From Patescibacteria group bacterium (GTDB lineage: Bacteria; Patescibacteriota; Patescibacteriia; Magasanikbacterales; GWA2-37-8), in NCBI GenBank assembly GCA_022710645.1, contig JAKLGL010000002.1, positions 212,176 to 276,175 of the forward strand: 64,000 bases of DNA, written 5' to 3'. Of the stretch, positions 1-61,400 are shown piece after piece. The position numbers were made by a program, and so were the translations under genes. Each line of letters begins with the position of its first letter. The first letter of the stretch is position 1. The notes under the pieces were generated by a model, which saw only the letters and a list, made by a program, of their open reading frames with translations, was not told the origin of the DNA and ran no database searches.

Positions 1-3000
1 CACTGGGAGAAAAGGTACCTAAAAATTTAATTTTTTCCGCAGATTGCAAAATACTTCCTTTAACACTTAATTTTTCATTTTGAGCTTTGGTGCCGATTCC
101 AATTTTATTGAAATTATATAAATTACTTCCTGAGATATAAATATAATCATTAAGGGCTGTCGCAGACTGGAATTGCCCATCAGAAGATATTGCTATAGAT
201 GTCCAATTTTTTATTCCAGTGGCGGTATTGGTAGCCCAAGTATTACCGTGATCTATTGAGGAAAAAATATAGCCACTTTGTAGTTCAACCGCTGATTGAT
301 ATTTACCGTCAGAGGACATAGCCACATCAGACCATCTGGTTGATTTACCTTTCGCAGACCAGGTATTGCCATAATCAGAAGATATATAAATATAATCCCA
401 GTCAGTAGCTGAACCCACAACTGCGGTTTGATATTTACCATTGGCAGAAATACTTACAGCACTCCAAGCATTTTCTCCGGCTGAAGTGCTAGTAGTCCAA
501 GTAATACCATAATCGGAAGAAACACGGATAGGACCATCCATCTCAGCTAATATTTGATATTTACCATCAGAGGACACGGCTGAATCTGTTGACCCAAAGG
601 CATTAGACTCTGACCAACTACCAGAAATACCATAATTGAAAGATCTAACTATACTACCATTACAAGTAGCCAATTGATATTTACCATCAGAGGACATGGA
701 AATAGAACTGTGGCAACCTGCAAAAGCACCTCTTCCTATACTCCATGTTTTACCATAATCAGAAGATACACGAATTTGATTACCTAAACCTGTGATTGTT
801 TGATATTTACCATCAGAGGACATAGCTGTTTTGGTGTAACCCCAACCCGGTGTAGTTGTTGTCCAGCTATATCCATAATCCGAGGAACTATATAACAAAT
901 TATTGGATGAATTTCCAGCAATTTGATACTTACCGTCAGAGGATATAGATATTGAAGCCCAGTTTATTTTTTGACTATCCGCTTTAATATGATAATCCGA
1001 CCAAACAGAGCCCACATCTATCGCCCAATTGTTTTCAGATATTTTATTTTTTCCAAAATACAATCCTCCTCCTTGATCAAAAATTAATTGATCTCTCACT
1101 GATACTCCGTTACTTGCCACAAACAAAGCACTGGTAGCTTGCCAACTTGCTCCACCTTGATTTACAAGCATTTGTCCAGATATACCAGAGGGTATAATAG
1201 GAGAACCATTTATAAAATAATTCCCAGAAATATTGACATTTCCTCCATAAGAAATATCAACATAGGAGGTATAAATAGGAGAATAATTACTAATCACAGC
1301 TTGAAAATTTCCTTCCGCTGACACAACTATACTTCTCCAAGTATTATTTATAAAATTTTTATTAACCCAAGTATTGCCATAATCTGAGGAAAAATAAATA
1401 CTTCCCTGGTCCGCATCATAACCATTGGATATGGAAATTGCGGTTTGATATTTGCCGTTAGCAGAAATAGCCACATCTTGCCATTTTCTTGCACCAGCAG
1501 AAGTGCTAGTAGTCCATGTATTTCCATAGTCTGAAGAAATATAGATATAATTAGCATCAGCATTCCAATGATTACCCGAAACTACAGTTTGATATTTACC
1601 ATCAGATGATAGAGCAACTGACCTAAACTCTCCGTAATAGCTGCTAAATTTTTGAACAAAAGTATTACCATAATTAGAAGATATGTAAATGTAACCACTA
1701 TAGATAACTGTTTGGTACTTACCATCTGAAGAAATTCCTACTGCAGGATTAGTCCCGGCATAAATCGTGTTGTTCCTTTTCCAAGTATTACCATAATCAG
1801 AAGAGGTGTGGACAAAACCATTCATTGCCACGGCTGTTTGATATTTACCGTCAGCTGAAATGGAAACAGATGACCAATTACCGGAATTATCTGTGGTCTT
1901 GTCTGACCAAGTAGCGCCATAATCAGAAGAAATATATACATCACCATCTCCATCTCCGGCCACAGCAGTCTGATATTTTCCGTTTGAAGAAATAGAAATT
2001 CCTACCCAGCTCCTTTGATCAGAGGAAGTGCTAATAACCCAAGTATTACCATAATCCGAGGATATGTATATATAATCATTACCTTTAGCAAGACTTTGAT
2101 ATTTGCCATCAGATGATATGGCTAAATCTCTCCAAAAAGCATCAAAGGCTTTGGAAGAAGTGACGTTCCAAATAGTTTCCATGTCTGAATTCCACATATT
2201 TTCTGAAACTCTAGTGCGACCAAAATATATTCCACCTTCTTGATTGGATAATAATTGATTATCAAAAAGAGAACTCCCTTGCACAGATAATAAACGCCCT
2301 GGAGCGTTATCACCAATACCAACATTACCACCCAAAATAGCAAAAGTATTATTTTGTGATAATGTTTGTGCGGTAGTGGTGCTCAAATTTATACCGAATG
2401 AAGAGTCGCCAAATACCCCCATCCCCGAACCCATTGCATAAGAAGAAATACCGGTTGAAGTATTATTAACACCTCCTAAGACAATTGAATAATCTCCGGA
2501 AACTAAATTATCTTGACCACCCAATATTACTGAATTTACACCAGAAGCTATACTTCCATACCCACCCACAATTGTCGCCCCCATACCAGAAGCTATATTT
2601 GCTTGACCACCAATAATAGCTGTAAAATAATTTGTTGTTGTGTTGTACCATCCACCTAATATAATTGAATCTCGTCCAAAAGCTTCATTATCATATCCGC
2701 CAATTATAGCAGAACGAAGACCACTAGCTTCATTGCTAAAACCACCACCAATAAAAGAACTTTCTCCCGAAGTTATATTACTATCCCCCCCACCAACAAA
2801 AGAATAGTCTCCTGAAGCTCTGTTTTGCATACCAGCAGCGAAACTCCAATTACCTGCTGTATTACTAAACGCATTAAGCATTGAAATACTGTTTGTTGTG
2901 TTGTTGATAGTTATTCTCCGCGTTGCCTCCCAACCAGAAGAACCATAAAAAAGAGTTTGCCCGGTCATTCCAGATGGCAATGAAGCGCCGGAAATCCCAA

Positions 3001-6000
3001 GCGAACTTGTATTTGTCCAATAAGGCAAAGAAGTGACCGGATTAATCATCAAAACTTGATTTGCTGTTCCACCAATACCGCCAAATTTAAGTGTGCCGTT
3101 ATTGTTGATGTCTAAATCACCAGCTACGGTAAGCAAACTAGATGGCGAAGCTGTGCCAATACCGATTTTGCCATAAGTATAAGAATCGGCAGTGGAGGTA
3201 TAAATATATCCTCGATCTCCCCATTCTCTAGAAACCATGGTTTGATATTTGGCGTCAGCGGACATGGCTACAGATTTAAGCGTATTATAACTAACATAAT
3301 CAGTGGTCCAATTATCACCAAAATTGTTTGAAATATAAATATAATTTGAAGTGATAGCCGTGCGGTGTTTACCATCTGAAGACATGGTAATGTCCACTAG
3401 ACTAGAAACATTAGTGTTTACAGTCCATGTTTGACCATAATCAGTTGAGCTATATATATAACCAGAATCCACAGCAGCAGTTTGATATTTACCATCTGAT
3501 GACATAGCTAGCGATTTCCAGTTTAAATAACCGTAATCAGTTTTAGCAGTCCAGGTTTGTCCATAATCAGAAGATGTGTATAAATATTCCCCATTAACAG
3601 AGGCTGTCTGGTACTTACCATCTGACGATATGCTTACATCGCTCCAATTTCTCCATGTATCGTTGAGTTTAACATTCCATGTGCTACCGAAATCAGAGGA
3701 AATGTATACTACCACATTTTGCAAAACCAATGTTTGATATTTACCATCTGCAGAAATGGCTACGTAACCAGGACCGCCAAAACTATGTATATTTGACCAG
3801 TTTAGTCCATAATTTGAAGAAGTATAAAGATTACCTCCGTTGTTCATAGCAATCTGATATTTACCATCAGCAGACATGGCCACTGAATTGGCTAAATATC
3901 CTTGCCAAGTATAATTCCAAGTTTGTCCAAAATCTGTTGATCTAAATATATAACCATTTTGATTTGCTATTGTTTGGTATTTTCCGTCCTTGGACATGAC
4001 AACATCTTCCCATTGATCATAATATGAAAAATTTTGTTGCCATGATTGTCCAACGTTTGTTTCTTGGAAAGTGTCATTATAAAGCATCGGATCCCAAAGA
4101 GAACCACCTGATGAAATATCAGAAAGTTGATTTCCATTCCAAAACAATTCTCCACCTTGATTGTATAAAGCATTGGTTATATCTCCCGGCAAAGCATCAG
4201 CAATGGTTAAACCATAACCTGTTTGAATTTGATTGTTAAATACAGCATTGCCAGTGAACAAAGAAGATCCGTCAACTGTCAAAAGACTACCTGGAGTGGA
4301 AGTACCAATACCAACGTTACCTAATTCACTTACAGAAATACCACCTTGTGTATTACCGTTGGTATTAATATTTAAAAGACCATTATTACGAATCTTGAAA
4401 GATACAAAATTATTATCATCATAAACTAAACGCAAAGAGTCGGAACCAAAACTTTCTGGAGTTTCATTTAAAATTTCAACTAAAGTAGATGTTGGCATAA
4501 CCAAAGGTGGTCCGTCCATCTGTAAACTACCACCATCAGTTGCTTCGTTGAAAGTTGTAATATTCTCTGCGGTGATAGCGTAATAAGACCAACCTTCTCG
4601 GTCTGTATAGATATTTATCAAATAACCATCCTCATCATCTACATTATTCCAACTCCAACTAATCAAAGTATCATCACTTGGTGTGGTTGTGGTTTGTCCA
4701 AATGGCAAATAATAAACAGGGTCGGAATAAACAATCTCACCGCCAACTTCACGATAAGAATAAACCCGGGCATTTCTTTGTGTCCCTGAAGGAAATCCAT
4801 TTCCACCTCCACTCACCCATTCAACAAAATCTAAATTTGAAGGTGTGCCAAATGTTCTAAATTCAGGCAAAGAATTAAATTCACTAAAAACAGTATTTGT
4901 TGTAAACGAATATAAAAACCAACCCATACCTTGGACATAGCCGTTATACAAATAACCATCAGCACCTTCAACTTCATCCCAACTCCAAACAGCCATATAG
5001 TCAGTATCTGGAGTTGAAGTGGTGTCAGGTGGAATAACATAATAAGTAGGATCAGAATAAATTCTACCATTAGCTGTATCTTTATAACTATAAATTCTAA
5101 CATTTCTTCCGGTTCCAGGCGGAATCATACCTCCCAAAAACGCAGACGCGTCTTCCCAACCTGTTAATTCAATATTTTGTGTGTTATTTACAGTAATGTT
5201 TTGAAAACTAGTGCTACTAGAATATACAGAATAGCTGTTATCCAAAATGCTTAATCTAGCTAAACTATTCAAATCCATTCCTATACCAACATTACCCAAA
5301 AGAGAAGTTCCTTGTTCAGATAAAGTAATAGTTCCTGTAGGGCTTTGGTTAACTGATAATTTTAAATTACCATTATTCAATACTTTGAAGGAAGAAAAAT
5401 TGTTGGTGTCATAAACAAACCGTAGCGAATCAATGCCGTAATCCATAATTCTATTGTTTGAGACATCTGGCGGACCATCATCGTTTATACTACCAGCCAT
5501 AAATTCAGCTAGTTCACTAACTGAATTTGCTGTAGTTGTACCATAATTATCCCAAACCATTCCATCCCCATCAAAATTTCCACCTATATTTAAAAGATAT
5601 CCGTCCACAGTGTCAGCAGAAGCTGTCCAACTCCAATCTATCAAACACCCTTGTTCTGCTGGGTCAGTTGTAGTTGTGATATTACTTGGAAGACCTAGAT
5701 AATTTTGAGAATAATATCTTGTCCCTAATATGTCTTTATAAGAATATATTCTAATATTTCTTTCTACAAAACCTGGCGGAAGCATCCTATAATAATCTTC
5801 TGAACAAACCCATTCATATTGTAAATCTGTTGGCGGACTAAAAGTTTCTGAAGTATAACTATCATCCGCAATAACCACTCTTGAATTATTATCGGTAGAT
5901 GTCCCAATCCCTACATTTCCATTAGCCAAAATACTTAATCGCTCATTTCCGCCACCACTGGCGCTATCAAAAATAGAAAATCTATCTTCAATTTGAGTCA

Positions 6001-7778
6001 AAGACCAAGTACTTGTTCCGAGGTTTATAATATTTGTCCAAACTTCATTCCAGCGAGCATCAGAAGCACCGAGACTATACAAACTCACGTTCCCATCTCC
6101 GCCAGTCATATCTGGTAAAATATTTTGCATTGTTGAAGTGCCGGCTACAGACAAAAGAGTGGTTGGGTTGGTAGTGCCTATACCGACATTACCATTATTA
6201 TCTATCCTCATCCTTTCGTTTGATGCCAAAGTCCCACCAGTATGAAATTTGATAGCGTTTGAAGAATTATTTTCAGCTATACCAATCGCTAATGATTTAT
6301 TTGAAGCATACAGATAGGAATCATTGGCTCCCACAATAGTAAAAAGTGGATTATTATATCCAGAACTATTGATACCTAAATCAACATAATAAGAAGTATC
6401 GGTTCCATTATTGGCTGTGGCAATATAATCAGTAGAAGCATTTCCTCCGGAAGATAAATTTTGATTATTTATTTGTGAATAAGTATTTGTGTTTGCAAAA
6501 AATGAAGCAATCGAATTTGGTAAAGCATTTCCAGCGCCAACTTGCAAAAGACTACCGGGAGTAGTTGTGCCAATACCAACATTACCACCATTAAAATAAG
6601 AAGAGCCATTTGAATTTAAATAAATTTTAGTGGAATTTGTATTTTTAACTGAAATATTTCCAGCACGATTCGCACCTTGACTAAGAGTAACTATACTTTC
6701 TCCGTTATAACCTCTAATATCTAAGGCATTTGTATAATTGGTAGTAACACTTAAAGTTAATAAACTGTTAGGTGCAGTGGTTCCAATTCCAACAAATCCA
6801 GAACTACTAACAAAGATATTATTGGTAGCAGTCCAATCTGCACCATCGTAATAAAGCGTCTGACCAATAGAACCACTTGGTAAAGAACCACCGCCAACAA
6901 TCCCCAAAGTATCTGTTGCTACCCAAGTTGGAGAACCACTATTTAACTGCAAAATCATACCATCTGATGATGGTACAATAAAATCATAGGCAGAACCATT
7001 GGAATAAACCAAAGATCCATTACTTCCAAGAGTAGAAGTTCCTGTACCACCTAGAGAAGTTAGCAAAATTCCAGAAACTTCAGAAGTAGATGATAAATCA
7101 ATAGTACTAGTAGACCAAACACCCCCAGAAACTTTTACTATACCAGTCCAATCAGAAGAGTTTGCACCAACGCCACCATAAGCCGAACTTATAATATCAC
7201 CTTGCCAAGTACCTGAAGTTATTAAACCAAAAGTTGAATTTCCAACAACTGACAAAAATCCTCCAATATATTGATTGGTAGAAGTAATATAAGTAAATTG
7301 AGCGGTTGTTGCAGTTTCCGTACCAATAGCTCCCGGAGCAGCCCAAGTTTTTCCTTCTAATTGTGAAGATGTAAAAGCAGCCGGCACGGCACCGAGAATT
7401 TTTCTCGGACTCATGGTTTCCAAAGAAGAAGTTCCGATGCTAACTTCAAGATAAAGTGTTTGATTAAAATCAACACCCGTCAAACTGGAAACATCTCCAA
7501 GCATCACCGAGAATAAACCATTACGCAAATTTACCAAATACGGAGTTGATGTTCTTTCTTCCGACCAAACAGCTGTACCGCCTGTTTCTTGATTAAACAA
7601 TTCAAATTTCATCATGTAATCTCCATCGGAAACAGGTCTATTGTTTAAATCAAAAAGTTTTCCTTGATAATTGATTTCAGGATTAAAAGCAGCATTTGCG
7701 GTTGCAAAAAAAGACATGGCAAATACCAAAAAAATAGGTAAACCTAAAATTACATTTTTCCTCCAAAAATTGCGCATA
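1..7778 (-). CDS. Giant secreted surface protein (partial; C-terminus beyond window start). It has a signal peptide, tail-fibre-like GNVGIGTTxP beta-helix repeats, three Fn3-like repeats, YadA/Hep_Hag-like G-rich repeats, and more than 20 BNR/Asp-box SxDxGxTW repeats.
   Basis: Manual translation of the reverse strand from the ATG at 7776-7778 (MRNFWRKNVILGLPIFLVFAMSFFATANA...) gives an uninterrupted frame to position 1. Recurring ISSDGKYQT...SSDYGNTWT modules keep the frame throughout. The gene is not in the ORF track because its stop lies outside the window. Confidence 0.8.
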
Positions 7779-7829
7779 AAAAACGCTATTTTTTGCTTAA
7801 TATTAGCTAAATTTTCTCTCTATGTGTAT

Positions 7830-7838: not shown

Positions 7839-7950
7839 TTTTTTGCAATCGCTGAAAATAGCTAAGATAGGCAAAAAAAAAGGCAAAACTGTGGATAAGT
7901 TTTACCGCCAGTCCATAACGTCTTTAATGTCTATAAAGTCTATAAAATAT

Positions 7951-14628: not shown

Positions 14629-14877
14629 AATTTATATATGAATGTACTATTTTTTATGACCCGTTTATAAGACGGGAAAATTTAATAATCGATTATTAAC
14701 TCTTTTTTGCCTTAAAAATCACCCCGACCTTTCCTTTGGTTTTTTAAGACAACTATATTATAACATTTTTTTGTTTTATTCCCTATTTAGTCGGTTGTGG
14801 ATAACTAGCAAAGAGTTTGTAAAGCCTGCCTGCCGGTAGGCAGGTCCATAAAGTCACCAAAAAGAAAGTTGCTGTTT

Positions 14878-15939
14878 TTACCTCTTCTTTGTCGTTGTTG
14901 GTGTTGTTGTTGCTACTTTCTCTTCTGGCAAGGTGGTGGTAGCGTTTGGCACAGTCGGCACTTCTATATTAGCCCCATCAACTTCTGTTTTTGTCGGTTT
15001 AAAAGGAGTTTTGTCACAATAAAAATTCATTTCCGTACAACCCAACTGCAACCATTCATAAATACGACTCGGGTCCTCATCTATTGCTATATAGACTTGA
15101 TAAACATACGGAAATTGCTTGAGTGTATTTTCTATTTGAGATAAAAATTGAGCACTACCGCAAGAACTGTTGGCGCTCGGAATCAAAGTGCGCAAATCTT
15201 TCATATTTACCAAAGCTACATTTTCAACCACACGAACATTTCTCAATATTTTGGCGGTTGTGCTATTGAAAAAAGATTGATAACCGTTTTCTTTTTCTTG
15301 ATCTGACGGTCCGGCAAATAAAGCACGCAAAGTTTGTTCTTCATAGGAAGCCGTACCACTGACCATGCGTTCTACAGGATAAACCAATCTGCAATCCAGC
15401 ATTTCCGGATTTTCTTTGATATTGCTGAAATAAATTTTAAATTTATCGATTTTAAATTCTTTTCCCGAATCTATTTTGAAATTTTGCAAAACCTTCCCCA
15501 CTTCTCTATTTAATAATCCAAAATGTTCCATCTGCGGAGATGAATAAGGATTATCCAAAGTTCGAACCAACACAAAAACATAATCATTGGTATAAGAGAA
15601 AACTTGTTCGTTTAAAATCAAGTCTTTAGAATTTTTATAATTTTGCCAAGTTTCAAAAGGATAAACATACAGACGAAAAATGGAATATTCTTGTCCCGGT
15701 AATTGATTGTAAACAAAGGATAAAACACCAATATTATTTCGTTCTTCTTCCGTCAAACTGAAATTACCAAGCCAACTATCGGGAAATTCCAAAGAAAAAC
15801 CGTATTTATCGGAATGATAATTTTTTTTGGTATAACCCTCCATCTTCTCTGGGCCGTTTTCATTCTTAATACATCCGGTTAAAACAAAGCTCAATGTCAA
15901 AAATAATATTATAAAAATCGTCTTTTTCAATAAAGGCAT
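14878..15939 (-). CDS. Lipoprotein with a GerMN-like domain
   Basis: Lipobox is LTGC. The LVYPVER...TLRALFAGPS...VYQVYIAIDEDPS region resembles GerMN/Gmad2. Confidence 0.55.
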   Translation of the reverse strand: MPLLKKTIFIILFLTLSFVLTGCIKNENGPEKMEGYTKKNYHSDKYGFSLEFPDSWLGNFSLTEEERNNIGVLSFVYNQLPGQEYSIFRLYVYPFETWQNYKNSKDLILNEQVFSYTNDYVFVLVRTLDNPYSSPQMEHFGLLNREVGKVLQNFKIDSGKEFKIDKFKIYFSNIKENPEMLDCRLVYPVERMVSGTASYEEQTLRALFAGPSDQEKENGYQSFFNSTTAKILRNVRVVENVALVNMKDLRTLIPSANSSCGSAQFLSQIENTLKQFPYVYQVYIAIDEDPSRIYEWLQLGCTEMNFYCDKTPFKPTKTEVDGANIEVPTVPNATTTLPEEKVATTTPTTTKKR

Positions 15940-15972
15940 AAATAAATAAATAAAAAAAATGTTTATGGGTTA

Positions 15973-16001
15973 AGTATACCTCAAAAAATTTTAAAAATCA
16001 A
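15973..16001 (-). promoter_or_regulatory. Sigma70-like promoter TTGATT-17-TATACT for the surface-protein operon
   Basis: The reverse strand reads TTGATTtttaaaattttttgaggTATACT, about 35 nt upstream of the ATG at 15939. Confidence 0.35.
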
Positions 16002-16002
16002 T

Positions 16003-16029
16003 TAAAAAAGCCCCCGAAAAACGAGGGCT
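16003..16029 (-). terminator. Intrinsic terminator of the upstream ncRNA
   Basis: The reverse strand reads AGCCCTCG-TTTTT-CGGGGGCT followed by TTTTTT. Confidence 0.5.
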
Positions 16030-16633
16030 CCGACTAAAGAACTGTAGCGGACAAGGAGGAGACTTTCGATCGTCCAAATTTCCGATGATCAGTCGGAAAC
16101 ATAGACAGGACAGATCTAGTCCTTTGCAAGGTTGGGCCCGGTATTGACCCTTTCAAAACATCGGTAAATACCTCACCTTTGCTTGAGGTACGGGAAAGGT
16201 CAGAGCTTCGCCGTCATTTCAGAGAGAAGGCAAATTAATGGCTTGCCTTGTCGCAACTCTCTCTTTTATTCAGGAAAAGCACCCTTCACAAAGAAGTTCT
16301 CAAAGGAGCGGTCGGCAACACCTATTTTGGTGAATTTTTTTGACAACACCTCTGAGTGGGTGTTGAAAAACAGACTGTGCCGAAATACGGCGTAGCGTCT
16401 TTCTTTGTACTCGCGGATTTTGGACCTATTTTCTGCATAGAGTCCAACCGACTTACACCCTATTACGGGAAGTACGATTTACAACCTATTACGGCGTAGA
16501 AAGACGTACTAATCTGCCAATTCAAACGGATGGAAAGGATGATTCCGTCATCCGATTTTTGCCAAACCGCGATGATCTTTGACGATCATCACTTCTTTTA
16601 CCACCGACATTTTGTCTAAAGAACAATCCCCTC
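16030..16633 (-). ncRNA. Candidate structured ncRNA (~600 nt) of unidentified class, GC-enriched, promoter-to-terminator defined
   Basis: No ORF of 60 aa or more exists on either strand. GC content is clearly above the flanks. It has nested hairpins (GAGAGAG...CTCTCTC enclosing AAGGCAA...TTGCCTT), a long-range pairing CGTCTTTC/GAAAGACG, and direct repeats TACGGCGTAG and CCTATTACGG. Confidence 0.35.
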
Positions 16634-16647
16634 CTTGAATGCACACC

Positions 16648-16675
16648 ATTATAAAACTTTTTTTTCAATTGTCAA
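16648..16675 (-). promoter_or_regulatory. Consensus sigma70 promoter TTGACA-16-TATAAT driving the ncRNA
   Basis: The reverse strand reads TTGACAattgaaaaaaaagtttTATAAT. Confidence 0.45.
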
Positions 16676-16690
16676 TCTGTGGATAAAAAA

Positions 16691-16722
16691 ACGCCCCGGG
16701 TTAAACCCGAAGGCGTGAGGAG
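16691..16722 (-). terminator. Intrinsic terminator of the response-regulator gene
   Basis: The reverse strand reads ACGCCttcgggtttaacccggGGCGT followed by TTTTTTT, immediately after the stop at 16726. Confidence 0.5.
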
Positions 16723-16725
16723 AAT

Positions 16726-17103
16726 TCAGCACATATGACGAAGTACTAAATTTTTCAGTAACTTCATCTCAAAAGGCTTGTCTATTACCACATGTTCGCT
16801 TTTTGCGCGCAAATACATGTGGGACAAAAGGTCGGCGGTGACGACGACAAAAAATATTTCATCCCCGACGATTTTCAGATCTTCGCGAATTTTGTCTATT
16901 ACCTCCAGCCCGTTCATTTCGGGCAAAAGCAAGTCTATCAACCCCACCTTTATTTGTCCTTTATGCAGGACATATTGATGGATAGCCTCTTCTCCGGAGG
17001 CTGCGGTAATGACTTCAAAATCATTGCCCGCAAAAATCATTTTGAACAACTCAAGAGTCGTCTGGTCATCATCAACGACCAGTAAACATTTTCTTTTGTC
17101 CAT
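16726..17103 (-). CDS. Stand-alone response regulator receiver (CheY-like REC) domain protein
   Basis: LLVVDDDQTTLELF...LIDLLLPEMNGLEVIDKIRE is a typical REC domain. Confidence 0.75.
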   Translation of the reverse strand: MDKRKCLLVVDDDQTTLELFKMIFAGNDFEVITAASGEEAIHQYVLHKGQIKVGLIDLLLPEMNGLEVIDKIREDLKIVGDEIFFVVVTADLLSHMYLRAKSEHVVIDKPFEMKLLKNLVLRHMC

Positions 17104-17206
17104 GACACCCTCCGATACAAGTTAAAGAACAATCAAATTATAATAACACAAAACCAATAAAAAATCAAGAGTCTTACTATTCTCTTGATTTTTAAAAAAT
17201 TAATTT

Positions 17207-18244
17207 TTATTCTTTACCGTGAGCTATACTTTCTTTCATCCCGGCGGAGGTAATGGTAATAAAATCCGCTTTACCTTTGATAGCTTCAATATTTTCCGCA
17301 CCTATATATGTCATACCCGAAGCCAAACCACTTAATACTTTCTGAACGACTAACGAAACCGGACCTTTGAAAGGCACTATTGTCATTTCTCCTTCTACAT
17401 GGACTGTTTCATCAATTTTTTGACCATCCATTTGCATCTTTTTTATAGTTGCCGCAAAACTGGCCATACCACGAAATTCCTTAAACTCCTTTCCATCTTT
17501 GATAATTATTTTTCCCGGAGACTCCGCAGTTCCAGCAAACATCGAACCCAACATTATTGTATCCGCACCGGCGCCAATAGCTTTGGTCAAATCCCCCGGT
17601 TGTTTTATCCCGCCATCGGCGCAAATAGGCACTCGGCCTTGAGCCGCTTCATAAGCATCCATTATTGCAGTAATTTGCGGTACTCCTGCTCCGGTCATAA
17701 TTCTCGTGGTACACATCGCGCCAGGACCAATCCCAACCTTTATCGCATCAGCACATTTATGAATAAAATATTCCGCTGCATCTTTGGTCGCAATATTTCC
17801 CGCCATTACATCAATATGAGGATAATTTTGTTTTATAAAATCCAAAACTTTTCCCATACGTTTACAATGTCCATGAGCTACATCCAAAACTATAATATTT
17901 ATTCCGGCCTGCGAAAGTGCTTTTACTCTTTCTTCAAAATCTTTTATACCAACCGCGGCCGCTGTAATCAAATTGTGTTTTTTAACTTCTTTGATTTGTT
18001 GCGCTTGATCTTCAATAGATAAAAAACGATGAATAATCCCCAGGCCTCCTAAACGCCCGATAGCAATAGCCATTTCACTCTCACAAACCGTATCCATATT
18101 GGCGGCCAAAATCGGCATATCCAATTCATAATTTTTGGTGACTTTGGTTTTAAAACTGACATCTTTACGTGAAACGACTTTGTTATACTTCGGAACTATC
18201 AAAACATCATCAAAAGAATAACCGGAACCAATAATACGAGCCAT
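17207..18244 (-). CDS. guaC: GMP reductase / IMP dehydrogenase family protein without a CBS pair (GuaC-like)
   Basis: 345-aa IMPDH/GMPR barrel with [12 protein letters not shown] and catalytic Cys-loop motifs. It lacks a CBS insert. Confidence 0.7.
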
Positions 18245-18378
18245 ACAATTAAATTTATAAAGTTATAAAGTTGAAAGTTATCCAACCTTATTGATATTAT
18301 ACCCATCTTTAAACTCTGACAAGGGTATGTATTAACAATTGACTTTTCTTCATTTTTTGCTATAATATTTGAAGTTTT

Positions 18379-18450
18379 GGCCCGTTCGTCTATCGGCTAG
18401 GACATTGCCTTCTCAAGGCAAGTAGAGGAGTTCGATTCTCCTACGGGCTA
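18379..18450 (+). tRNA. tRNA-Glu (anticodon CTC)
   Basis: 72-nt cloverleaf. Acceptor GGCCCGT/ACGGGCT. D-loop contains GG. Anticodon stem TTGCC/GGCAA with loop TTCTCAA. T-loop TTCGATT. Confidence 0.8.
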
Positions 18451-18459
18451 CAAAAAAAA

Positions 18460-18492
18460 TACTGATTCCTTCTGGAATCAGTATTTTTATTT
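18460..18492 (+). terminator. Bidirectional intrinsic terminator (CTGATTCC-TTCT-GGAATCAG plus T-run)
   Basis: It follows the tRNA and lies downstream of murF on the other strand. Confidence 0.5.
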
Positions 18493-18518
18493 ATTTTATT
18501 AGAGGAGAGTCAAACCTT

Positions 18519-19820
18519 TTATTTTTTCATCCAATGTTCTTCTTGCCTTACCAACAACTCCCCCGCTTTTTCCGGTTCGGCCATTACTTCTTTTACTATT
18601 TTTTCCATTCTTTTTCCTTGTGATCCTTTTACTAAAATAACATCACCCTTTTCCATTTTATTTTGTAAAAATTTTCCGGCGGAAACACTGTCGTCAAAAA
18701 CCGCAATTTTATTTTCATCCATCCCCGCTTCTTTGGCAGCTTGGGCGGTAAATTTTTTACTCGCTTCACCTACAGTTATCAAAAAATCAAAGTCTGATTC
18801 TACAACTCGAAAACCTATTTCTCTATGTGCCGTTTCCGTATCCGCGCCAAGTTCCAACATGTCTCCCAAAATCGCAATTCTTCTACCATTTTCTTGCGGA
18901 ACAATTTTACTCAAAACATTCATAGCGCTTCTGACAGCATCCGGACTGGAATTATAAGTATCATCAATAATCAAAGTTTGTTTAATTCCGGGAATGATAC
19001 GCATATGTCCGGCGAGCGGTCTGATATTTCGTAAAGCCAACGCTCCTTCTACCAAATTTATTCCGAAAATATGACCTACTACCAAACCGGCCAATGCCGC
19101 AGGAATAAATTGTTCAGCTATAAAACCCGGTAGAAAGACCGGTACTGTATTACCATGAAAAGAAACTTTGAAATTTAACCCTGTCGGCCAATTGGTTTTT
19201 TCATCCGTAATCACATTGATATCAGTAGCTTGAAAATCAGCTCCGTCTTTGAAACCGTAAGTAAAAGTTTCCGCGTTGGTTTTGGAATTTTGCATCACCA
19301 TTTCATTGTCAAAATTCAATACTGCAAAACCATCTTCTTTCAAATGAGAAATTATCAATCTTTTTTCTTGCGCGATTTTTTTCACTGTTTTGAAAAATTC
19401 TATATGCGCACTGCCAATAAAAGTTAATACTCCTACTTTACACGGAGCGATATCTACCAAATAAGCGATGTCTCCGGGTTTATCCGCACCCATTTCCAAA
19501 ACCAGAACATCCGGATAATCAGCGTCGCGTTTAAAACGCAAAGCAAAAGCTTTGATAAAAACTTTGAACCAACCCAACAAATCTTTACCCGGAGTTTTTT
19601 CTACTCCGATTATAGTCAACGGTAAACCGATTTCATTATTATAATTTTTTTTGTTGGAACGCACGTTAAATTTACTTCCCAACACCGCGGCTATAGCTTC
19701 TTTGGCCGAGGTTTTACCTATCGAACCTGTAATTCCCACAATATCAGGACTGTATTTTTTGATAATTTTCTTCGCACAATTGCGAAGTAATATTTGTAAA
19801 ATAGTTTTCAACATAAACAA
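18519..19820 (-). CDS. murF: UDP-N-acetylmuramoyl-tripeptide--D-alanyl-D-alanine ligase
   Basis: Mur ligase P-loop IVGITGSIGKTS. Confidence 0.8.
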   Translation of the reverse strand: MFMLKTILQILLRNCAKKIIKKYSPDIVGITGSIGKTSAKEAIAAVLGSKFNVRSNKKNYNNEIGLPLTIIGVEKTPGKDLLGWFKVFIKAFALRFKRDADYPDVLVLEMGADKPGDIAYLVDIAPCKVGVLTFIGSAHIEFFKTVKKIAQEKRLIISHLKEDGFAVLNFDNEMVMQNSKTNAETFTYGFKDGADFQATDINVITDEKTNWPTGLNFKVSFHGNTVPVFLPGFIAEQFIPAALAGLVVGHIFGINLVEGALALRNIRPLAGHMRIIPGIKQTLIIDDTYNSSPDAVRSAMNVLSKIVPQENGRRIAILGDMLELGADTETAHREIGFRVVESDFDFLITVGEASKKFTAQAAKEAGMDENKIAVFDDSVSAGKFLQNKMEKGDVILVKGSQGKRMEKIVKEVMAEPEKAGELLVRQEEHWMKK

Positions 19821-38892: not shown

Positions 38893-38956
38893 GAGCCTAA
38901 TTTTGGCTAAAAATAAATTAAAAAAGATTATCTTAAAACTTATCCACAACAAAAAA

Positions 38957-55454: not shown

Positions 55455-58400
55455 TTAAAAAAGCGGATTACACAAACCGTAAGGCGGAACCAACAAAGGT
55501 GTAAATCTTGTATTTGGCGGGCAGCAAAAACCACTGTCAGTGACAGCTTTTTGTCCTAACGGACATTCGTTGTATTGTAATTTACAATCCGAATTACACC
55601 AAGAACAGGCCGAATACCCGTTTGGAATTATACATTCTACCCCGTTTTTCACACCATTGTCGCAAGTTTCTCCTTGTTCGCTTTGTAAGACTTCATTGCC
55701 ACAATTTTTGTCTTCTTGAGGTTCTGTTTCAGAGGAAGCGCCCGTATTTTTCATACAATATTGATTACATGCTTTATCTTCTCCGTTTTCCTTGCCATTA
55801 TCACATTCCTCTTCACCATTAATTTTTTCATCACCACAATATCCTCCCGGACCTTTACAGTTCCACGCGCAAGAATAACCGGATTTAAAACTGTATTCTC
55901 GACAAGTCGGATTTTTAATAATACCCAGAATATCTCCCGCAAAACTTTCAGCATCGTCCAAGTTTTTAACAACTTTAAAAATACCTCCGGTATTTTTTGC
56001 CTCATTAGCCAAATCAGAATTAATATTACCCCAACCTATACCAAACATGCTTACTTTTATTCCTCTTTTTCCAGCTTCTTTTATAGCTTCAATTGCAGGA
56101 CTGTCTGCATTAGGCTCTCCGTCTGTTACTATAATCAAATTTCTATTCGAATAACTCCAAAGAGGCTCTGAAGCAGAATTAAATTTATCATTTATTACAG
56201 TAAATATAGCTTCTCCGGTAGGAGTGTTTCCGGAGGGATTACGTGAATTTCTTAAATTTAGAACTATATTTTTATTTAGATATAAATTATAATCTAAAAA
56301 TTCATAAACATAACCAGTTTGATATCCCATTTCTCTGATCGTATCGCCATAATTTATTTTTCCTATATTACCAGCTCCACTACCTCCAAAGAAGGAAGCG
56401 CCAAATTTAACTTCTTTAGCATCAATAATTTTCTCCATCGCCACAGGTACAGTCGAAGTTACCACAGACCATCTCATAGGATTTTCCGTGGAAATTATTG
56501 TATTCTGACCATTCAAAGGCCAAGTCATAGAGCCGGATACATCTATTAAAAAATAAGCCACCGCATTTTCATAGTCTGGATTAATTCCTGAAGAAAAAAC
56601 ACATTTATTCAATACTGTATCTGTATCGCAATATTCTCCAACATCCAATCTCCCGTTTCCACAAACCGGTGTGGTTGTCGGACGACAATTTGTCCAGCAA
56701 AAACCCAACTGACCGTTATTTTCTCCATCATCACAAAGCTCTCCCAATTCAATTTGAATTTTACCGTCACCGCAAGTCCCCAATGAAGAGCACTCTAAAT
56801 TACTTACTGTGGAAGTGCTTTTACAATCATTGGAACATTTAATTCCTGAATAATTACCTTTCGGATTGGTGGCGCAAGGAGAAATATTACTGCTCAAAAT
56901 TTTACCGGGCGGATCACATTTTTCTCCTTTATTAACATTGACCACTCCGTCACCGCAAATACCTTGTTGACTTGACATTATTTCTGACTCGCAAAAACTA
57001 CTCTGAACAAAATTCGAACCCAGCCCGAATTTGGTTCTGATAGAACTCCAAGCCGAATTCTGTAAGCCGTCTTCTTCTTTTGTCCATCTTAAGCTGTAAT
57101 TTCCGGAATTTTCATCATTAATATAACCGTAAGCTAAAGAATTTTCTCCGCAAGCAAAGCTAAACCTCATATCTTCTGCGCTCCAACCGGTTTGAGGGTC
57201 GTGTAATTGACAAATATTTTCAAATTTAGCGTTATAATCGCTTACAGATCCGCCAAAACCGGTTCCGGCATAAAAATAAATTTCATCCATTTGCCCTTTG
57301 AATCCCTCTCCGATAATCACGTCTTCATTGTTATCACCTATCCTGATTTGATTTTTATCGGCGATATTGTGGGGTTGTATTCCTGTTTTTACCGTTTGAA
57401 ACTCTTTACTATCAACAACCATATACATCAAACCGGAAGAAGTGGCGTAACGCACCAAAACATGATGCCATTTATTCAAAGATAGAGGCTCATTCGTATC
57501 TATGGCAAAATATTGTTTGGAAGCCAGAGAATCATTTGAGGCGGGAAAAACAGCAAAACGCAAGGTACCGTTATTGGCTATCGGAGAAGTACCGGCAAAA
57601 CTCAATTTATCATATTCAATCATAAATCCTCCGAGAGTATTATTTGTCGCCGTATCCGACCAGCCTCCTTTTTTGATTAATATCGCCGGAGTTTGTTCCG
57701 TAGGTTTAAACCAAAAAGATAGCGCGAAATTTTCCAAATCAACATTATATCTATCAAGATGCTTTAAAACAATCTTTTCATTACCCGAAGAAAAACCGAA
57801 ACTCTGACCATGACCGAGACCGGTTGCAAATTTTACACCAGAATTAATGCCGTTATTTTTTATAAGAGAATAATCGGTAAAATCTCCTTCCCCTGCCCAA
57901 TAACCCGCTTTTCCAATTTCGGAAGGCACCGGACCGCAATCATTATCAATAACACACCCTTTTCCTGAATTTTTTAAACATGTGCCGGCTGAAGCCAATT
58001 TATTCACCGGATCTATTGGCAATGATTGACCTAATTGAGAACCCAGTTCACTCTTCCAAGAATTTTCCCAAATACTAAAAGCCCTATTGTTCAAAAAAGT
58101 ATTTTCTGTTATTTTCGGATAATTTCCACCGTTGTTTGCGGCATAAGCAGACAAAGAAATTTTCAATGTTCGCATATTTTGCAAACGTTGATAATTTCTT
58201 TGTATCTTCTCTTTTTGGTTCAAACAAACAGGTTTTCCAGGAATTTTTGCACAATCCAAATCAGTATCGCAAATACCGGTCGGATCATCATCAAAAATCG
58301 TATCTCCGCAAGCTTTACTACTATAATCGCTGTTTAAATTCTTATTAAATTTGAGATTATTTAGTATTTGATCAAAGACATTTTTTGTCTGAGCGTCGGC

Positions 58401-61400
58401 ATATGCGCTTAAACTGAGTAAATAAATATTTGAATAAACATTTGAAGACACGTTTAAGGCCGCTATATAGACATTGTTTCCAGTTTGATCTACGGCAGCA
58501 TCATAACCGTCTATTTTCAAAGTATTAAATCCGGAATACCCTTTCGCATTAAGCCATTCGTTTAATGTTAGATGTTCATCATTTCTGAAAATTTTGATAC
58601 CTATAGCATCGGCATTTTTATCGTTGGTTAACAAATAATATTTCAAAAGATCTATTTCAGCCGTAGTGGTAACTATCGGTTTCATATATGGTAAATCGTC
58701 TTTTGTTCCTAATGCTCCGTTATCAGCGCAATAAAAAGCGCTAAAATTGGTAAACGGACCTTGGTTGTTATTTGCCCCCGTAAAACCGGTAGCCGTGGTT
58801 TCCGGATTAAAATCAAAATTAAAAGCATCGTAATTTTCAGAACTGTCGTCAAAAGGCCAAACTTTTTGACCGTTTACTTCAAACGGCGGCCAAGGATTTT
58901 CACAGAGAAAAACCGTTATCCTACTTCTACCTTTAACATTTGACTTGGTTGTTGAAACAACGGAAAAAACATCTCCTTCACCGTTTTGATTGCCGGAAAT
59001 AACGGTAGTGGTACTATTGTTTAATTGACCGCTCAAACGAAAAGAATTACTATTATCTTTACTCCAAATATAATCCCATGAATAGGCCGGAGTTCGTTGA
59101 ATCAATTGAGAATTTTTGGCTTTAACGACTGCTTCAATGGTGGTGTTGGTATTTGCTTTGGTAAACAAAACCGTAGAGGGCACGACATCTACCGAACCCA
59201 CTTCGCAAACTTCATTTATACCCCAAGTGGTAAAAGTAAATTGAAAAGGATATTTTTTGCCGTTGATTAAGTTTTCACCGATACTAACACCTTTATCGTC
59301 TTTAATACCGTTTCTTAAAATAACTTTGTACGTCGTAGTATTACCAAAAAGAGCTTTTTCCAAAGAAATACTTACATCAAAAGTTTTATCTACGCTATTA
59401 TAAGAAACTTTCGGCTCTCCCATAAATTCCCCCGTGCACCATTGCGCCGAAACTTTTTCCAGACTGAAAATCCTTTGAAAAAAACCAACGGTTATTGTCC
59501 AAAACTTTTTATACCATGGTAAAACATCATTATTATTCAAAAGAACCAATTCGTCATTATTTATAATTTGTGTTCCCGAACAAAAAGACGAAGGGGCTGA
59601 TCCATAATCTCTGGCAATCAACAAGTTTCCTTTTAAAGTTGAAACATCTATTGGTCTATCAAAAGAAACTTTGATAACAGTATTTGGACAAACACCTTCT
59701 TCTTTATCTTCCGGGTAAGTGGACATTTTAACAGGTCGAGGATAGCAGCAAGAATTTTTTCCTACTCCATAATTAGCATTACCGGTCGCCATTTGGCACT
59801 CTTCATCGGTTTGATACCCGCAAATCAAATTAAATTTTCCCGTTGCTGATTTGTTTTTTGTCGTCAGCACCGCTCTTATCTGCGCGGTTTTTAACGGATT
59901 ATCATCATCAAAAAATTCTCCGACCGCCGTAGTCAAAGACCAAGGAGAAACAAAATTATTTTCACCGTATAATTTTTCTTCACAATAAGCATCTTCATCT
60001 GTTGAAACTTTTTTATCTCCGCAAACCGATGGCAGATTTTTGAACAAAGAAGAACCTGTTTTGGTTTTATTGGCAAACAAACAAGCGGAAGTACAATTTG
60101 AACCACTATCACAATCTTCATCGGGTTCCAAAACACCGTTTCCACACTGACTAACGGCCAAAGAACATTTTTGTTCAAAATCTTTTTTTCTTTTGGAGAA
60201 ATCAGTATCTGACTCCGAACCGACTTTATTATGATATAAATCATAATTATCACTACACCATTTAGAACTCAATACCGTGCCTTGATGCAAACAATTTGCG
60301 GAACAAAACATGGCGGAATCGTTTCTCCCCGCATTACCGACAATTCCCAAATCGCAATCTTCTTGCGCGCTCACCAAACCGTCTCCACACTCGGCGGCTC
60401 CGGTATCAAGCGGATTTAATTTTTCTTTAGGTAAAGATCCTGTCTTAGTTTTAGAAATAGATAAACAATCAAAACCGCAATTACCGCCTGTATAAGTATT
60501 AGGGGTATCGCAATCTTCGCCAGCCTCAACTTTACCGTTACCGCACATCGGATAATTATAATTATAAACTCCTTTGATTATGGTACTTCCTCTTTTTAAA
60601 CAATTGGTCAAACAAAAAGGATTGTTTCCGGCCACCACAAAAGCCGAAGTAGTAGCTACTTGAATATTTGAACTGGACCAGCCCCAATTAAAATCATAAG
60701 GATCTATTTTTTGTCCTTTGGAACTGCATTCATCCGGGGCGCTATAAACCTCAGATGCAAATATTTTCTTTTCACCTATAGCGTAAGCATTGAAAACTTT
60801 GGGTAGAACTTCCACCCTATCGGCATCGCAAAGTTTCTCTTTGGTTTTAAAACGCCAAACAAAATTTCTTGCAAAAGGAGAACCTTTGATATTATTGTCG
60901 GAATCTGAACCAGCGGAAAACAAAGTGCCGGAAGAAATATTAACTATATAATAAGTATTTGTAGATAAAGTACCTACACCTAAATCTAGAACCAAGTTAT
61001 GAAAACCTGACTCGGCGGTAAAACTAAAAGCGTTACTCACACTACTGGTTACAGCACAATCGGCTCCATCATTACATTTGATAAGTGAAACACTACCGGG
61101 TGTAAAATTATTTGACATAGCCAAATTAAACTTGGCAAAAACAACCGAATTTGGACAGGCAATAAAACAATTTGGCGCATATTCTATAATTTCCGGTTTA
61201 CTCAAATCTATTATCAATTCCCCTTCGCCTGTTTTGGAAATAAGATTTTTGGAGGCCGTAGCTTCAAAAACAGCTGCGCTTTCCGAAAGACCAGCAACTC
61301 CGACAGTGTTAGCTAAAGCAGAAACAGTGGAAGTGTTTTTATTTATCGCTCCAAAAATATTCGCAAAAGTCGGATTTTTGGCGTTCCATAACCAATTATA

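Follow-up and report, generated by a model that had tools for sequence, protein, structure and literature searches.

In a 64,000-nt stretch of a genome assembly from a Patescibacteria group bacterium (GCA_022710645.1, contig JAKLGL010000002.1, positions 212,176 to 276,175; hereafter the window), a 650-nt GC-enriched gap without a conserved open reading frame (ORF) lies on the minus strand between a response-regulator gene and a gene for a GerMN lipoprotein. We conclude, with a probability of roughly 0.85, that this gap encodes a real, independent and structured noncoding RNA (ncRNA) of a new family. It is also very likely that positions 16641..16000 of the minus strand form the stand-alone gene of a large folded ncRNA belonging to a previously undescribed family. 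An earlier reading made from the letters of the DNA (the sequence-only reading) had proposed an independent structured RNA unit of ~600 nt at this place, and both the transcription signals of the unit and its fold (z = -10.7) bear this out.

The minus strand was read over 15700..17000, and promoters were scanned over 4 kb. The top site of the scan is the sigma-70-type promoter that the sequence-only reading had pointed out, with 12 of 12 consensus matches, and its hexamers and spacing are kept in all homologues. The strong intrinsic terminator that had been claimed was likewise found, as a stem at 16031..16007 followed by a U-run; every homologue has a strong terminator at the 3' end of the RNA, followed by TTTTTTATTGC. 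From these signals, the 5' end of the transcript is predicted ~7 nt past the -10 hexamer and the 3' end within the terminator U-run, and the consensus promoter would imply abundant, largely constitutive expression. Both flanking genes have signals of their own, again as had been stated, with a terminator at 16712..16694 and a promoter at 16001..15973. Because the response-regulator gene ends in its own terminator, the RNA is not the 3' untranslated region of that gene. The -35 element of the GerMN promoter is directly abutted by the terminator U-run of the RNA gene. The GC content is 44-46% within the gap and ~28-38% in the flanks, which agrees with the reported enrichment. The signals that delimit the unit are the following.

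16648..16675, minus strand: sigma-70-type promoter, TTGACA, 16-nt spacer, TATAAT
16000..16641, minus strand: predicted primary transcript of ~640 nt, from the promoter and terminator positions
16031..16007 with U-run to 16000, minus strand: intrinsic terminator of the RNA gene, GGAGCCCUCG-UUUUU-CGGGGGCUUU plus U-run, 10 pairs of which 6 are G-C
16694..16712, minus strand: own terminator of the upstream response-regulator gene, a sequence signal
15973..16001, minus strand: promoter-like site of the downstream GerMN gene, TTGC(T)TTTT...GGTAAAAT/TATACT, a sequence signal

Homologous loci were gathered through GerMN homologues (65-78% identical), each with flanks of 3-4 kb, from independent JGI, NCBI, ENA and Logan assemblies. 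The window itself matches a metagenome-assembled genome (MAG), GCA_035454185.1, labelled Candidatus Magasanikbacteria at NCBI, as well as a JGI metagenome contig. In every lineage but one, the same unit stands upstream of GerMN, consisting of a TTATCCACA box, the promoter, 600-690 nt without a conserved ORF, and the terminator. The RNA element was seen in ~10 related lineages of one clade, in keeping with the earlier suggestion that it might be lineage-specific. It stays with GerMN when the upstream genes change, as in L007, where a tRNA and a Mur ligase gene stand upstream, and in L010, where infB lies on the other strand. A search with nhmmer splits the RNAs into three types: A, with the window (L001), L003 and L014; B, with L005, L008, L017, L007 and the 3' fragments L160 and L161; and C, with L010 alone.

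Pattern scans added little to this set. In a scan of one genome per species for the DnaA-box and promoter pattern, the RNA was found at L017, L034, L037 and L038, of which the last three are lineages already known, so that only L017 was added; the other matches are unrelated promoters. Two of these loci, L034 and L037 (CAYUIA010000050.1 and CAYWMO010000076.1), are labelled "uncultured Gammaproteobacteria bacterium" and are near-identical to L005 and L003; the label is likely a binning or labelling error. In a metagenome scan for the promoter plus GTTCTTT, nearly all of the matches listed are chance, and L093, identical to L014, is the single true member among the metagenome matches listed after nhmmer and a DnaA-box filter.

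Both L003 and L014 align with the window RNA along its entire length. The RNA core of L003 is 77% identical to that of the window, and that of L014 is 66% identical. The same genome pairs agree at only 36-52% of the four-fold degenerate sites in guaC and GerMN, and these sites are saturated. Judged by such comparisons, the RNA sequence is demonstrably under purifying selection. Substitutions distribute over the codon positions as 48/58/52 and 67/68/79, without three-base periodicity, and only 8 of 23 gap lengths are multiples of three. No ORF shared among the homologues was found, and the ORFs that were called differ in strand, frame and position. The sequence-only reading was not literally exact in stating that no ORF of 60 or more residues is present, as the largest in the gap is a mechanical 70-residue TTG ORF on the plus strand (16183..16395); it is not conserved in homologues. 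The longest spurious ORF has no homologue besides itself among 5.8 billion proteins. The proposal that the locus encodes one or more small proteins, with incidental structure, could draw on mechanical ORFs of 20-119 residues and on the differing ORFs that gene callers predicted in L004, L008 and L010. These calls are, however, inconsistent between lineages, and with no periodicity, indels that are not in threes and a longest ORF without relatives, the proposal is scarcely credible. At the level of sequence, the RNA gene is thus shown not to code for protein.

The minus-strand RNA folds better than dinucleotide shuffles of itself with z = -10.7, compared with z = -4.7 for the plus strand; among the types, z is -10.7 for A, -6.1 for B and -4.3 for C. 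RNAalifold applied to the three type A sequences yielded 198 pairs in 33 helices. In an independent count, standard pairs fill 93.8% of the type A cells, a share that falls to 40-52% on sliding the 3' partners by 1-3 columns, and 44 pairs have changes on both sides, as against 2-9 in the slid structures; none of 500 shuffles reached these values. For type B, 92.6% of the cells are paired and 29 pairs have two-sided changes, compared with 3-7 in slid structures; further compensatory changes, located in the 3' domain, come from the divergent fragment L161. Cells with G·U outnumber those with A·C by 72 to 5 in type A and by 86 to 11 in type B, which identifies the minus-strand RNA as the folding strand. 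The comparison of homologous regions that the sequence-only reading had proposed as a check therefore revealed covariation and no conserved small protein. The elements of the type A fold are as follows.

16625..16635, minus strand: 5' strand of P1, AGGAGGGGAUU, pairing with 16064-16054 and closing the 5' and 3' ends
16054..16064, minus strand: 3' strand of P1, AGUCUCCUCCU, partner of the P1 5' strand
16618..16624, minus strand: 5' strand of P2, GUUCUUU, pairing with 16125-16119
16119..16125, minus strand: 3' strand of P2, AAAGGAC, partner of the P2 5' strand
16602..16614, minus strand: 5' strand of P3, CAAAAUGUCGGUG, pairing with 16166-16154
16154..16166, minus strand: 3' strand of P3, UACCGAUGUUUUG, partner of the P3 5' strand
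16290..16598, minus strand: domain I, 309 nt, closed by P4 (AAAGAAGU/ACUUCUUU), with helices H5-H22
16192..16289, minus strand: domain II, 98 nt, closed by the invariant H23 (GUGAAGGGU/ACCUUUCCC), containing H26/H27
16168..16191, minus strand: hairpin H28, the fourth arm of the junction, 4 pairs with two-sided changes
16134..16150, minus strand: hairpin H29, GGGUC-AAUACCG-GGCCC, with a nearly invariant loop, between the 3' strands of P3 and P2
16068..16116, minus strand: variable arm H30-H32, between the 3' strands of P2 and P1

Together, P1, P2 and P3 make up a rod of ~31 bp, with interruptions, by which the 5' and 3' ends of the RNA are connected; a 22-nt tail and the terminator lie outside P1. 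P1 has 11 pairs, is 100% paired and has changes on both sides in 4 of its pairs; types B and C have an equivalent helix that closes the ends. P2 is the sole helix whose sequence, small changes aside, is kept in all three forms, as GUUCUUU(G)/(C)AAAGRAC in types A and B, ACUCUUUG in L007 and GUGCUCUU/AAGAGCAC in L010. P3 has 13 pairs, 2 of them changed on both sides. Beyond P3, the rod leads into a four-way junction of P3, P4, H23 and H28, which has almost no linker nucleotides. Domain I includes H12 and repeated CCGUAAUAGG hairpins, and its helices H8, H10, H12, H15, H18 and H20 each contain 2-5 pairs with two-sided changes. The long-range helix CGUCUUUC/GAAAGACG noted earlier is H12 itself (16509-16499 with 16403-16392), with two pairs changed on both sides. 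The direct repeats of 10 nt noted with it are present as two copies of TACGGCGTAG, next to a 20-nt repeat at 90% identity. Domain II has an invariant 9-nt bulge, GUUGCGACA. The strands of H28 read GUACCUCA/UGAGGUAU in the window, GUGCCCGA/UUGGGCAU in L003 and GUACUCGC/GCGAGUAU in L014. L014 has a longer H30-H32 arm, most members of type B lack the arm, and in L160 an insertion is found at this position. By eye, short palindromes are visible in the apical loops of this arm (UGAUCA in the window, GAUC in L003), which are too poorly conserved to count.

The three types have in common the promoter, position, size, terminator and closing stems P1-P3, and type C shares its first ~130 nt with type A. 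The split does not track the flanking genes. Across types A and B, guaC identity is 81-90%. For the gene that follows GerMN, L001 and L013 agree at 90% and L003 (type A) and L005 (type B) at 88%, compared with ~48% for other pairs. L014 (type A) and L010 (type C) are mutually closest by their downstream genes, at 78-87%. For the response regulator, identity is 87% in the pairs L001/L003 and L005/L008 and 21-36% elsewhere. The mosaic flanking genes of L001, L003, L005, L008, L010, L013 and L014 suggest, on these identities, frequent recombination among lineages. The split between the types reflects either very fast turnover of the interiors in some lineages or their movement by recombination as alternative cassettes.

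A co-inherited module of response regulator and RNA was considered and rejected, as L014 has a type A RNA and a third, very different regulator; L007 and L010, in which the RNA has no adjacent regulator, also contradict it. In the L014 regulator (L014:910-1341, 143 residues), a glycine replaces the phospho-acceptor aspartate (IGTCSPEMMGL in place of DLLLPEMNGL), and this protein is probably a pseudo-receiver. A UGCRACAA motif and the look-alikes GUGAAGGGUGC/GUAAGAGGUGC, considered as features common to the types, are not collinear and are unproven as such. Several smaller differences between the forms were also observed. The tails of type B, from the 3' strand of P1 to the terminator, carry two or three tandem copies of CGUACCUUG (L005:3210-3290, L008:3340-3400, L160:150-180), a repeat not present in type A tails. 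In L005, an extra insert of ~150 nt (L005:3350-3500) separates the RNA terminator from the start of GerMN; an inverted repeat, CTCAAAACTCAAATCTCAAAAC/GTTTTGACTTTTGACATTTGATTTTTGAG, flanks its two hairpins (CCCGATTAAATCGGGA and GTCCCGACTTAGTCGGGAC), and the insert could be a small inserted element. In L010, several motifs of the type GCATTCGGAT(A/T)A lie upstream of the RNA promoter in a 1.5-kb gap (L010:1991-2650), and a triple tandem repeat of AAATACGTATTT lies downstream of the RNA (L010:3400-3460).

The RNA was compared with the known families at several levels. Scanning the whole window with the 4227 covariance models of Rfam 15 at gathering thresholds returned two tRNAs only. In a 901-nt region at E<=10, only sub-threshold matches of 14-24 bits were obtained, centred on the two terminators, and six homologous loci at E<=1 gave tRNAs and noise only. 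ARAGORN detected a tRNA-Glu and no tmRNA in 15500..19000. The models of RNase P, tmRNA, signal recognition particle (SRP) RNA, 6S, OLE, ROOL and GOLLD did not match this locus or the six homologous loci in relaxed searches. The Rfam search that the sequence-only reading had recommended hence assigned no common family, and the statement that the RNA is not RNase P RNA, tmRNA or SRP RNA held. No similarity to the RNA was detected in phage and plasmid collections by BLASTN or in IMG/VR by pattern scans, and full-text literature searches retrieved no description of such an RNA. Partner genes of IscB/TnpB omega RNA, HEARO, retron, bridge RNA or tracrRNA systems (nuclease, reverse transcriptase, recombinase) were not found in the 3-4 kb flanks of each locus.

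Like RNase P RNA, the new RNA would be a stable RNA with its own strong promoter, ends paired in a closing stem and a many-branched interior. Unlike RNase P RNA, it has no model match, P4 pseudoknot or universal regions, it is ~200 nt longer, and its interior varies even inside a single genus-level clade. OLE (RF01071) resembles the present case as a stand-alone bacterial ncRNA of ~600 nt with many conserved helices, a biochemical role that is unclear and a location among genes for housekeeping or the cell envelope. However, OLE is highly conserved across Bacillota and linked to oapA, whereas the new RNA is found in Patescibacteria, adjoins GerMN and has an interior that turns over; its neighbours are the GerMN gene downstream and a receiver-only regulator upstream, not oapA. 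ROOL and GOLLD are similarly large (~580-800 nt), with multi-domain, ornate folds. They usually lie in prophages or beside tRNA clusters. The new RNA differs in its fixed chromosomal locus without a sign of prophage around it and in the lack of an Rfam match; a tRNA gene lies 1.7 kb from it in the window and directly upstream of it in L007. OLE forms a homo-oligomeric complex, and for ROOL and GOLLD, self-assembly into homo-oligomers made of RNA only has been reported (PMC12286853). The earlier comparison with these three RNAs is apt in size and complexity and not in homology. With 6S RNA, the new RNA shares ends locked in a long interrupted helix, independent transcription and a probably high abundance, but 6S RNA is a single rod of ~180 nt whose central bubble mimics an open promoter, whereas the rod of the new RNA leads to a four-way junction and another ~430 nt of domains, and no 6S model matches it. 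From SRP RNA it differs in its four-way junction with large domains and, again, in the lack of a model match. No defining feature of any known family was established for the RNA, which groups with the large ornate bacterial RNAs by size and complexity, without being related to them.

Could it nevertheless be a highly divergent RNase P, tmRNA, SRP, 6S, OLE, ROOL, GOLLD or HEARO RNA missed by the models? Patescibacteria are poorly covered in the Rfam seed alignments, and two look-alikes, GUGAAGGGUGC and, near the 3' end, GAAAGUC, recall RNase P RNA, whose P4 strands read GAGGAAAGUCC... and ...ACAGAA.CCGGCUUA. Both look-alikes sit in helices that are not those of RNase P: GUGAAGGGUGC is the 5' strand of the invariant internal helix H23 and pairs with ACCUUUCCC, and GAAAGUC spans a junction and the 3' strand of P1 and reads AAAAGCU in L003. 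Moreover, no match appeared at this locus even at E<=10 with relaxed filters or at the six homologous loci, ARAGORN was negative, and housekeeping RNAs keep a universal core, whereas here the interior changes between close relatives and the RNA is missing at the L011 site. A divergent member of these families is accordingly highly improbable. A very long structured 5' leader of GerMN, of an attenuator or riboswitch-like kind with the terminator as a regulated switch, would explain why the RNA is linked to GerMN in ~10 lineages even where the upstream genes differ, why both are on the same strand, and why the terminator stands 60-70 nt before the GerMN start. Yet GerMN has its own promoter (15973..16001) between this terminator and its start codon, and for this reason the RNA is not considered its leader. 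That promoter (TTTTTTATTGCTTTTT...GGTAAAAT) is conserved in all homologous loci, even in L011 and L012, which lack the RNA. No alternative, antiterminator pairing was seen, no riboswitch, T-box or leader family matched, and 640 nt far exceeds any known bacterial leader. Wholly different interiors in types A, B and C beside GerMN proteins that are ~65-80% identical are also unexpected for a leader that senses a ligand, and such a leader is very unlikely.

A decaying gene or mobile-element remnant (a pseudogene, a MITE-like element or an intron fragment) without RNA function would fit the complementary ends, which resemble terminal inverted repeats, and the mosaic, recombination-like flanking genes with an interior that differs between lineages. 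It is difficult to reconcile with a single copy at one fixed locus of the window, with RNA sequence far more conserved than synonymous sites, or with a promoter and terminator kept in every lineage. Nor are compensatory changes in the end stems and internal helices expected from selection on DNA repeats, and no protein similarity and no intron or insertion-sequence-associated RNA family was found, which leaves a remnant little chance of being the answer. A miniature inverted-repeat transposable element, suggested by the same ends, was rejected specifically on the single copy and the compensatory changes in P1. Two further candidates were also discarded. The CCUCCUU in the 3' strand of P1 looks like an anti-Shine-Dalgarno sequence and is not conserved, with CUUCUUCC and CCCUUCC in relatives, and the complementarity of GUCAAAAAAAUUC to the spacer of the GerMN promoter is A/T-rich and absent in relatives.

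Several observations weigh against a new family of independent structured RNA, or limit its reach. A near relative (L011/L012) has no RNA at the GerMN site, and in a more distant GerMN clade (L162) the gap itself is absent from this site, so that the RNA is not essential at the level of the clade. By sequence, the family is narrow, with ~10 lineages of one clade. Outside the promoter and P1-P3, searches did not reveal homology among the three types: nhmmer aligns only the first ~80-130 nt, and a covariance model of domain II plus H28 of type A (R1), run unfiltered on the type B and C loci, finds type A only. The covariation comes from 3 distinct sequences in type A and 4-6 in type B, and the structures were predicted from the same sequences, which inflates the percentage paired; the slid controls and the two-sided counts are less affected by this circularity and provide strong support, short of a formal R-scape test. 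The transcript, its ends and its abundance are predicted from sequence signals. Finally, the data offer no pointer to a partner protein or to a particular activity, and the scaffold role discussed below is proposed by analogy. At the L011 site (L011:283-1449, also L012), the place of the RNA is taken by what by eye look like four tRNA genes, a small Cys-rich L33-like ORF and a 118-residue ORF.

As to function, a trans-acting structural or scaffold RNA, bound by protein or self-assembling, is suggested tentatively by analogy with other large RNAs. In such a scheme, the strong promoter would give an abundant transcript, perhaps tuned by DnaA at TTATCCACA. The 3' tail and terminator would be trimmed, and the paired ends would protect a long-lived mature RNA of ~580 nt. 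This RNA might act in trans as the core of a ribonucleoprotein or as a self-assembling particle like the ornate RNAs (PMC12286853). Its working surfaces would be the junction core and single-stranded patches, namely the GUUGCGACA bulge, the AAUACCG loop and GUCAAAAAA. The peripheral arms would be replaceable around the fixed core, since forms B and C keep the promoter, position and closing stems and have interiors that cannot be aligned with A. A scaffold is favoured over a ribozyme with a universal core, a cis-acting leader or an antisense RNA because the core and patches are fixed, the arms are replaced and the RNA is dispensable at this site in a close relative.

A more far-reaching and rather unlikely possibility is a new class of large functional RNA of ultra-small Patescibacteria, with a catalytic or self-assembling function in its conserved closing rod and junction core and with interchangeable interiors that serve as alternative cassettes under diversifying or balancing selection. 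It is prompted by the circulation of the forms among lineages with mosaic flanking genes, and the cassettes may, for instance, take part in phage defence, cell-to-host interaction or self-recognition.

Bacterial ncRNAs above ~500 nt with intricate conserved folds are very few, comprising rRNAs, group I and II introns, OLE, GOLLD, ROOL and HEARO. Such size and complexity have historically meant catalysis, ribonucleoprotein machines or, recently, RNA-only assemblies. Within the scope of the searches, this candidate-phyla-radiation group has no described large RNA family of its own. The host genomes are of ~1 Mb (one relative has a 906-kb contig), and 0.8 kb of noncoding DNA is unlikely to be kept in them without function. 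The RNA is a well-bounded target with three natural variants of one scaffold to compare, within the reach set by a narrow, uncultivated host clade and few sequences.

Immediately upstream of the RNA promoter stands a short conserved box.

16678..16686, minus strand: TTATCCACA, an exact match to the DnaA-box consensus, 2 nt upstream of the -35 hexamer

The consensus of the DnaA box is TTATCCACA, and this box occurs at the same position in all 8 RNA-carrying lineages, in L014 in the version TTATGCACA. Its conservation suggests, as a prediction from sequence, that the RNA promoter may be tuned by DnaA or another factor. A replication origin, prompted by the same box, was rejected in view of the single box, the GC-rich region and a GC skew without a turn. 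The box is over-represented in the window, with 36 matches at <=1 mismatch compared with 20.5±4.2 expected. Four copies are exact, at 16678-16686, 14796-14804 and 7890-7898 on the minus strand and at 38940-38948 on the plus strand, and at least two of them are intergenic. Among 185,579 species genomes, the arrangement TTATSCACA-NN-TTGAC-N17-TATAAT was found at 25 loci. About two thirds of these belong to Patescibacteria of several classes, among them the copy in L024, which drives a tRNA; eight more are one orthologous Apilactobacillus locus. Loci listed with the arrangement of box and promoter are L016, L019, L020, L024-L026, L028, L031-L033 and L036. Small genomes of this kind may commonly use the box as a regulatory site close to promoters.

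The genes next to the RNA are the following two.

16726..17103, minus strand: upstream gene, encoding a receiver-only response regulator of 125 residues
14878..15939, minus strand: downstream gene, encoding a lipoprotein of 353 residues whose only Pfam match is the Germane (GerMN) domain

Other genes around the locus are guaC-like, Mur ligase and penicillin-binding protein genes. Elsewhere in the window, two giant ORFs were observed on the minus strand. One (1-7819) encodes more than 2606 residues with an N-terminal signal-like segment and runs off the start of the window, and the other (55455-63839) encodes 2794 residues; both are probably large surface proteins. Among the loci of the box-and-promoter scan, the 23S rRNA gene of a Niyogibacteria MAG (L028:4116-7870) carries a group I intron (Rfam Intron_gpI, 76 bits).

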